IMG/VR virus record: IMGVR_UViG_3300045776_000084
From: a virus
Strand: one strand, 5' to 3'
Length of the DNA: 36,037 nt
Numbering within the stretch: position 1 is the first letter of the stretch; each line of letters starts with the position of its first letter. Below are positions 35,381 through 36,037 of the stretch, piece by piece. The position numbers and the translations under genes are program-made. The notes below the pieces were generated by a model. The model was not told the origin of the DNA, did no database searches, and was given only the letters and a program-made list of their open reading frames with translations.

Positions 35381-35426
35381 CCGGGGTTGACACCTTTTTG
35401 GCTATTGTTTTAGAGATTTTTTTTGG

Positions 35427-36037
35427 CTATTGGTCAGCGCAGCTTCGGCTAGTCCTCTTGCCTCTTCGATCTCTCTCCAATCGCAGTTCGCGGATGAGAT
35501 CGCGCATCTTGGCCGCGCGCTCGAATTCGAATTTCTTGGCGGCCTCGCGCATCTCCTCCTCCATCTTGGCGAGGAAGGCTTCGAGCTCTTCGCGATTGGC
35601 GAACTCCGGCACACCGTCAATGGCCTTCGGCTCTTCCTCGTAGTCGGCGTTGACGATCTGCGCCAGCGACATGTCGGCACCGCGGATGATGGAGCGTGGC
35701 GTAATTCCGTGCTCAAGGTTAAAGGCCTCCTGGATGGCGCGGCGGCGGTTGGTTTCGCCCATGGCGGCCTTCATGCTGTCGGTCATGCGGTCGGCGTAGA
35801 GGATGGCGCGGCCCTCCACGTGGCGGGCGCAGCGGCCAATGGTCTGAATGAGCGAGCCGGCGGAGCGCAGGAAACCCTCTTTGTCGGCGTCCAGAATCGC
35901 CACCAGGGAGACCTCCGGCAGGTCCAACCCTTCGCGCAGTAGATTGATGCCAATCAACACATCGAACTCGCCGTTGCGCAGATCGCGCAAGATTTTGATG
36001 CGCTCCAGGGTCTCGATCTCCGAGTGCATGTAGCGGC
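35427..36037 (-). CDS. uvrB: Excinuclease ABC subunit B (UvrB) C-terminal portion. The gene continues beyond the window end (host gene, high GC).
   Basis: [53 protein letters not shown] (helicase motifs V-VI of UvrB). C-terminal UvrB/UvrC interaction helix ...[17 protein letters not shown] about 62% against about 50% for the rest. Confidence 0.85.

Follow-up and report, generated by a model that had tools for sequence, protein, structure and literature searches.

The DNA studied here, IMG/VR record IMGVR_UViG_3300045776_000084, is an entire metagenome contig of 36,037 bases from the Joint Genome Institute (JGI), hereafter the window. Some 35.6 kb of this sequence belongs to the genome of a large rIIA- and rIIB-carrying phage, the host of which is an uncultured Acidobacteriaceae bacterium. 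At the right-hand end of the window lies a minus-strand open reading frame (ORF) of uvrB type with Pfam Helicase_C, UvrB and UVR domains, which ends ...SRSCADQ* with its TAG at 35429..35427. Downstream of it on the same strand are the rIIA-type gene (32944..35352, 802 aa; phrog_612, E = 1e-98) and the rIIB-type gene (31719..32951, 410 aa; phrog_609, E = 2e-56, with Phage_T4_rIIB as precomputed Pfam domain). An initial annotation of this locus had proposed that the element is integrated at, or just past, the uvrB stop codon. We found that a change from host to phage DNA is indeed present, that it falls within a 167-bp segment common to host and phage, and that the host end of the window is probably a mis-join of the assembly and not part of an integrated prophage, a reading to which we would give a probability of roughly 0.65.

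An exact look-up of the rIIA-type protein retrieved three JGI phage contigs, L001 to L003, which carry the identical protein. Window positions 22944-35648 aligned to L001 and L002 with 99.98-99.99% identity (1-2 mismatches in 12,705), and the alignment ended abruptly at 35648/35649. Past this point the window continues as genuine UvrB, whereas L001 and L002 continue as the unrelated N-terminal 143 residues of a 217-aa ORF, which is preceded by further small phage-type genes. A scan with 34-mers of the shared part yielded two host-type contigs (L005 and L007) and one more phage-type contig (L006). L007 was identical to the window at 556 of 556 positions from 36037 to 35482 and then ran on as ...RELR|SRELFT* into host DNA; its UvrB is complete (661 aa) and its continuation consists of host genes. 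L005 represents a second host strain with 99.3% identity, and the homology of a more distant host contig, L004 (91%), likewise stopped at 35482. The true discontinuities are thus at 35481/35482 and 35648/35649, and not at the stop codon. L001 and L007 have exactly 167 bp in common with 100% identity, and L005 matches at 166 of the 167.

Three parts can be told apart along the minus strand. The host-only fragment (35649..36037), just 389 bases at the very end of the window, encodes the helicase C-terminal and UvrB domains by Pfam (...RYMHSEIE...LAQIVN) and is 100% identical to L007. The shared segment (35482..35648) encodes the UvrB linker and the C-terminal UVR domain up to ...RDLIRELR and is 100% identical in host and phage. 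The third part, the phage-only 3' tail (35427..35481), consists by the alignments of 17 codons and the TAG and replaces the native host tail SRELFT*; the phage-only DNA below 35482 also holds a pair of 13-mer repeats and the rIIA promoter region. Judged from these alignments, the host-to-phage switch falls somewhere within 35482-35648. By its UvrB, the host has as nearest species-level genome an uncultured Acidobacteriaceae metagenome-assembled genome (MAG) with 87% amino-acid identity, followed by Granulicella with 76%. Exact 34-mers of the shared segment had no match in IMG/VR or in the GTDB representative genomes, the partial UvrB product of the window (in its 202-aa and 200-aa forms) had none in the gene-position index, and when the last 6 kb were compared by blastn with 50,697 phage records only the uvrB part was matched, at 66-80% identity.

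The junction, which the initial annotation had set at the stop codon, therefore belongs inside the 167-bp block. Its suggestion that the last uvrB codons derive from the element was borne out, as the 17 phage-only codons stand in place of the native SRELFT. Its jump in guanine-plus-cytosine (GC) content from 50% to 62% at the stop codon is real as a rise, but was overstated, the change being from about 53-55% to 60-63% and less sharp: we measured 52.7% for window positions 1-35352, 54.6% for rIIA, 44-48% for the AT-rich spacer, 59.8% for 35430-35648 and 62.8% for 35649-36035 (0.85 GC at third codon positions, GC3). It had further proposed a comparison with uvrB loci lacking the element, and there the host contigs show different DNA downstream of uvrB, so this comparison does not refute the proposed integration; it is the phage contigs that rule out the attachment role of the 13-mer, on other grounds.

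On the phage side, the position of the 167-bp segment in the contigs marks it as a piece of a host gene which the phage has captured and which is joined in frame to the 3' part of one of its own ORFs. This 217-aa fusion ORF occurred as eight sequence variants on 14 contigs from JGI and European Nucleotide Archive (ENA) projects made with different assemblers (L012 bears a k141 contig name), all of them with the phage tail, and independent assemblies (L001, L002, L006, L012 and the P0121 cluster) agreed in placing phage genes to either side of the shared segment. Only residues 149-202 of the fusion ORF matched solved UvrB chains, in the C-terminal domain; UVR was its sole precomputed Pfam domain, and the N-terminal 143 residues are unrelated to UvrB. 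Having neither helicase domains 1a to 3, nor the beta-hairpin, nor the UvrB interaction domain, it is not a member of the UvrB family. Its ortholog in a related phage (P0122, 53% identity in the central helical part) has a different C-terminus with no UVR domain, the rIIA relatives L010 and L011 have no uvrB piece upstream of rIIA, and PHROGs contained no family for the fusion ORF or its neighbours. An AlphaFold model of the fusion ORF, of low confidence (mean predicted local distance difference test score 51.6), shows a body of helices, then a disordered linker, then a helical hairpin at the C-terminus. We also observed that in L012 three of four substitutions across 3.9 kb cluster within a 5-nt stretch inside the captured segment (L012 2473-2478, corresponding to window 35506-35511); they change AAGATG to ACCTTG (KM to TL), and may have arisen by one mutation of several bases or by recombination with another allele of the host.

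The join between host-only DNA and phage, as it stands in the window, is rare. Its hybrid tail was found on one contig only (P0231), the 200-aa partial product of which lies in the host UvrB cluster and is identical to that of the window; this contig is 36,037 bases long, by which the window is recognised as the whole of it. The native tail SRELFT was present in 14 of the 15 listed members of this 22-member cluster, on 64 contigs that reach 80 kb in length. In a collection of about 15 billion proteins, none of six hybrid UvrB sequences constructed at full length was present. The reciprocal products, in which the phage ORF would bear the native tail, were likewise absent from it as four constructs, and none was present in the phage ORF cluster. 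Of the paths expected from a lysogen, one was thus seen once and the other never.

The end of the window also carries the marks of an assembly graph. Host-type contigs L093 and L094, from other samples, start at the last base of the window, match it over exactly 127 nt (35911-36037, minus strand) and have their first mismatch at position 128. A match of this kind is what a de Bruijn vertex of k = 127 leaves where strains differ by a single nucleotide polymorphism (SNP), and the last 127 nt of the window would be the terminal vertex of the graph. We take 127 to be the largest k in JGI's usual metaSPAdes runs, and the reads to be 2x150 nt. The break that ends contig L003 also falls in the shared segment, at 2 nt from a host SNP. 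A comparison of L005 with L007 revealed no strain SNP that explains the end of the window, for which L093 and L094 supplied the explanation. Chimeric contigs have been documented to arise from k-mers that genomes share (PMC7299287). Here the phage and host paths would merge in the graph because the perfect identity of 167 bp exceeds the largest k-mer (127), and a 150-nt read would be unable to cover the repeat together with both flanks. The assembly path would have left the phage, crossed the repeat, taken the 389-nt host edge and stopped at the next branching vertex. As in a chimera, the breakpoint was at an exact repeat of length at least k, and the phage path (14 contigs) and the host path (64 contigs) were each assembled separately. 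The converse idea, that the L001-type join is itself a chimera of two prophage junctions, was rejected, since the pure phage (14) and pure host (64) paths dominate. Since the host-only part amounts to a single short graph edge, the hybrid is rare and no reciprocal product was found, a mis-join is therefore the most likely origin of the host end.

Several points weigh against this reading. It is drawn from graph signatures and rarity, and its k of 127 and its 2x150-nt reads are assumed from JGI practice, although they fit the 127-nt signature. A true lysogen or a co-integrate would give the same graph. The tail count covers the 15 listed members of the host UvrB cluster, out of 22, and seven tails thus lie outside it. 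Lastly, the phage genome is incomplete: about 51 kb of it is seen, including 5.5 kb only as the extent beyond L001, its relatives reach at least 70 kb, and an integrase could sit in the part beyond.

The alternative that survives best, although we consider it unlikely, is a real junction, in which a single crossover within the 167-bp identity has inserted the phage at uvrB, in all of its population or in part of it. The route, with the same low odds, would be homologous recombination or a site-specific recombinase with its core inside the 167 bp, and the UvrB of the lysogen would then, no more probably, have its UVR domain intact and end in a substitute tail of 17 residues, comparable to phage 21 and e14 at icd. 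The geometry of the Campbell model fits exactly. A hybrid with host DNA to the left, the shared segment and phage DNA to the right exists; the unoccupied site is represented by L005, L007, L093 and L094, in which native SRELFT* is followed by host genes; and a phage form with the same segment exists in L001 and others. Furthermore, the hybrid ORF remains open with its UVR domain complete, repeated recombination could account for the persistence of the perfect identity, and the cluster of three substitutions in L012 might reflect exchange with another host allele. Against this, the hybrid was met once, at a contig end and with one graph edge of host DNA, the reciprocal junction was missing from both the phage ORF cluster and the exact look-ups, and the site was unoccupied in the 64 host contigs of up to 80 kb. 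No integrase, recombinase, excisionase or repressor family was recognised among the window ORFs with Pfam and PHROGs, nor any recombinase family in the 9.7 kb of L001 across the shared segment, which brings the phage sequence searched to about 45 kb, and the gene content, with rIIA and rIIB, is typical of large virulent phages. The phage copy, moreover, is translated within a phage ORF and stops six codons short of the native end, which is not usual for a substitute 3' end.

Far less probable, to the point of being very nearly dismissed, is site-specific integration at or just past the uvrB stop with a 13-mer repeat as the attachment (att) core or an arm site, as the initial annotation had it. 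What it reported of the repeat itself was correct: TTTTTGGCTATTG is present in two exact copies at 35395-35407 and 35420-35432 with 12 nt between them, the TAG of the uvrB-type ORF at 35427-35429 lies inside the second copy, and the pair is close to the compositional change. The pair is also non-random, but it is not unique: an exact 13-mer repeat within 50 nt was obtained in 3 of 300 dinucleotide shuffles of the window, and three other local 13-mer repeats of the same type are present in the real window. However, both copies were found together and unchanged in the phage-form contigs L001, L002, L006 and L012, the last of them from an unrelated ENA project, with phage genes on either side, and both lie to the phage side of the two discontinuities, 50-87 nt from the nearest end of the host homology, which stops at 35482, 50 nt before the nearer copy. 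The repeat is therefore phage DNA and not an attachment site. A matching copy at the opposite boundary had been anticipated, and the window contains no third exact copy; host contigs have none downstream of uvrB, an arm-site role is without support, and the integrase that was to be sought did not turn up in the 45 kb of phage sequence. Of the proposed integration junction, then, the host/element switch held, and integration was not supported, in view of the single hybrid, the lack of an integrase and the lack of a reciprocal junction. As for a phage in which uvrB is an auxiliary gene, present in full or at considerable length, with the L001-type contigs as deletion derivatives, we give it practically no credence: the window ORF does stay genuine UvrB to the contig end, but its uvrB part is 100% identical to the chromosomal contig L007, the other genes of which are host genes, the contig ends at a graph vertex 389 nt past the shared segment, 14 of 14 phage contigs have the short fused form, the host-only GC3 of 0.85 compares with 0.56-0.71 in the measured phage genes (phage DNA overall, 50-53% GC), and no phage contig with a full uvrB between phage genes was found.

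The position of the two 13-mers upstream of rIIA suggests another role for them. On the coding strand this region reads CAATAGCCAAAAA-AAATCTCTAAAA-CAATAGCCAAAAA-GGTGTCAACCCCGG-TATACT-GTGATT-GGAGAGAAG-AAACCAC-ATG(rIIA). A scan for a sigma-70-type consensus gave TAGCCA, 18 nt and TATACT, with 9 of 12 matches, as one site against 0.2 expected in shuffles. The -35-like hexamer TAGCCA (35404..35399) of this predicted rIIA promoter is contained in the proximal 13-mer (35395..35407, minus strand), its -10-like hexamer TATACT (35375..35380, minus strand) ends 22 nt before the ATG, and a putative ribosome-binding site, GGAGAGAAG (35360..35368, minus strand), can be read in the rIIA leader. In the related phage L010, TGGTATAAT lies 23 nt from the rIIA ATG, against 22 nt here, and in the related phage L011 the leader TGGAGAGAGGACAAACCACATG and the ribosome-binding site are conserved. 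The distal 13-mer (35420..35432, minus strand; CAATAGCCAAAAA on the coding strand) is phage DNA, identical in L001, L006 and L012, and holds the stop codon of the ORF. We therefore propose that the pair probably comprises a promoter-region element, the proximal copy with the -35-like hexamer, and a duplicated or second copy; the distal one, 25 bp upstream, may have arisen by local duplication or be a second copy of an intergenic motif, ATAGSCAAA.

This core motif had four exact matches in the 45 kb of phage sequence. Although about 89% of the genome is coding, all four are intergenic, and each has the orientation of the gene downstream of it. ATAGSCAAA(G)AGG is possibly a phage-specific promoter or regulatory element, as its placement hints. 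Two points count against these assignments: the rIIA promoter call is a prediction from a 9-of-12 consensus match only, and the spacing from ATAGSCAAA to the start is non-uniform (53, 54, 78 and about 90 nt). A motif at a fixed distance from start codons was accordingly rejected, the third site being at about 90 nt against 53-54 nt for two others. The further copies, at window 13256-13264 (minus strand) and L001 8962-8970, come directly after the stops of upstream genes; in the window the motif's own TAG is the upstream stop, and in L001 the stop is 4 nt before the motif.

The right end of the host homology offers a hint as to how the fragment was acquired. It is spanned by a 16-mer, ACTGCGATTGGAGAGA (35472..35487, minus strand), which matches the rIIA leader ACTGTGATTGGAGAGA (35362-35377), 110 nt downstream, at 15 of 16 positions, and the junction itself falls in ACTGCG|ATTGGAGAGA. 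The two occurrences share the leader-like form ACTG(C/T)GATTGGAGAGA, and by motif scan they are the only two GATTGGAGAG sites in the 45 kb of phage sequence. ACTG.G would thus be a microhomology at the capture junction, between host uvrB and phage leader-type sequence. That the right junction sits on ACTG(C/T)G, common to uvrB and the leader-type sequence, points to microhomology-mediated joining, and a recent date is suggested because the fragment is 100% identical to the host. The uvrB fragment may accordingly have been captured recently by illegitimate, microhomology-mediated joining. The fused ORF reads through 17 unrelated codons and terminates at a TAG upstream of rIIA, a stop that the distal 13-mer supplies by chance.

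What the fusion might do can be put forward only tentatively. It is improbable, though worth stating, that the phage expresses the 217-residue fusion from the early rII-region block as a decoy which sequesters UvrC or caps UvrB, so that host nucleotide excision repair is disabled or redirected. Such a decoy, a similarly doubtful proposition, would present an exact copy of the linker and of the UvrC-binding UVR hairpin of host UvrB, mounted on a helical scaffold from the phage, its identity kept by ongoing recombination. A related possibility is that the 167-bp homology lets a phage of virulent type form occasional co-integrates at uvrB.

The remainder of the window consists of phage genes, and no tRNA gene was found in it. 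The relatives of its rIIA, at 39-41% identity, are on IMG/VR contigs of 70-75 kb. To the left of the junction it encodes a Ku-like end-binding protein (30254-31240, minus strand), an ATP-dependent DNA-ligase-like protein (13261-14046, minus strand) and an RNA ligase fused to an HNH domain (10335-11390, minus strand). Speculatively, Ku and the ligases may form an end-joining or repair toolkit with a bearing on the capture of the uvrB fragment, which they could have joined by its ends. Two R2K-clade ATP-grasp proteins (PF14243, PF18299) flank the rII region, one in the window (29005-29913, minus strand) and one in L001 (2781-3626). An 819-aa protein (25888-28347, minus strand) combines vault repeats with a major-vault-protein shoulder domain (PF11978, E = 3.5e-26), which is not usual in phages, and it had no PHROG match. 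A Clp/AAA_2-type ATPase (2040-4568, minus strand; phrog_4871, ATP-dependent protease) contains an intein with Hint and LAGLIDADG homing-endonuclease domains. An ORF with a T5orf172/MUG113 domain (6249-6665, plus strand), on the strand opposite to its neighbours, lies in the lowest-GC stretch of the window (40% at 6001-6500) and may be a mobile insertion of the endonuclease type. Two large collagen- and repeat-containing tail-fibre proteins are encoded by convergent paralogous genes (14295-17984, plus strand; 21298-23880, minus strand) with up to 84% identity over 134 aa. Inside them lies a perfect 47-bp inverted repeat (14953-14999 and 23650-23696, 8.65 kb apart), which flanks the 3' parts of the fibre genes and four smaller genes. 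This layout recalls invertible or recombining host-range cassettes, and no invertase was found in the window.

The finding fits two known kinds of event, namely a host gene fragment carried by a phage and an assembly chimera at an inter-genomic repeat. With the chimeric contigs described for de Bruijn graphs (PMC7299287) it has in common an exact stretch longer than k that belongs to two genomes and from which the wrong exit is taken; the counterparts here are the 167-bp repeat, the terminus at a 127-mer vertex and the single short foreign edge. It differs in that the repeat is a host gene fragment in the host's own phage, and not a conserved gene or a mobile element. Among integrative elements, the attachment site of phage 21, e14 and NC-SV lies within icd (PMC12803456). 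Like these (phage 21 being lambdoid), the phage studied here carries a 3' gene copy with which a hybrid gene would stay open. The substitute end at icd is about 165 bp long. In the icd system, however, an integrase gene adjoins attP, the two junctions are both on record and the substitute extends as far as the gene does, whereas here no integrase and no reciprocal junction were found, the hybrid was seen once, the native last six codons are absent, and the copy is fused in frame to a phage ORF at 100% host identity.

Host DNA acquired through illegitimate recombination is known also from morons and from captures of the specialised-transduction type. A truncated uvrB has a precedent in Escherichia phage DN1, a record matched by blastn whose annotation lists a transduced bio locus together with a partial excinuclease ABC subunit B; in the present phage, too, a fragment of host-level identity lies among phage genes. 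Captures of this kind are of kilobase scale, include neighbouring host genes and come from aberrant prophage excision, whereas only 167 bp were taken here, in frame in a phage ORF, with microhomology at the junction and no sign of lysogeny. With T4-like rIIA early promoters the predicted promoter has in common its -35- and -10-like hexamers, the 18-nt spacer, a short leader and a strong ribosome-binding site; it differs in that the -35 region lies in a 13-nt element duplicated 25 bp upstream, and in that the ATAGSCAAA core occurs at two other intergenic sites.

As such the finding is an ordinary one and a useful caveat for prophage calling. Whether inspected by eye or passed through a prophage caller, a contig with a conserved host gene beside an island of foreign DNA would be taken for a prophage with its att site, and here such a layout most likely represents a free phage with a mis-joined host end. 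Three signs can be reused elsewhere: a stretch longer than k in which phage and host are exactly alike, foreign DNA that amounts to one graph edge, and a contig terminus coinciding with a shared 127-mer.

For the phage and its host, the perfect 167-bp uvrB copy ties a large uncultured phage of rII type to a specific uncultured Acidobacteriaceae population, and such links are scarce. It also represents what appears to be a very recent in-frame capture of a host protein-interaction domain, with microhomology at the junction. One aspect might be biologically new, namely that an exact host UvrC-binding domain has apparently been grafted in frame onto a phage protein. If it is true that this fusion protein interferes with the UvrB-UvrC interaction, it would amount to a new anti-repair strategy, which we mention as a possibility only.

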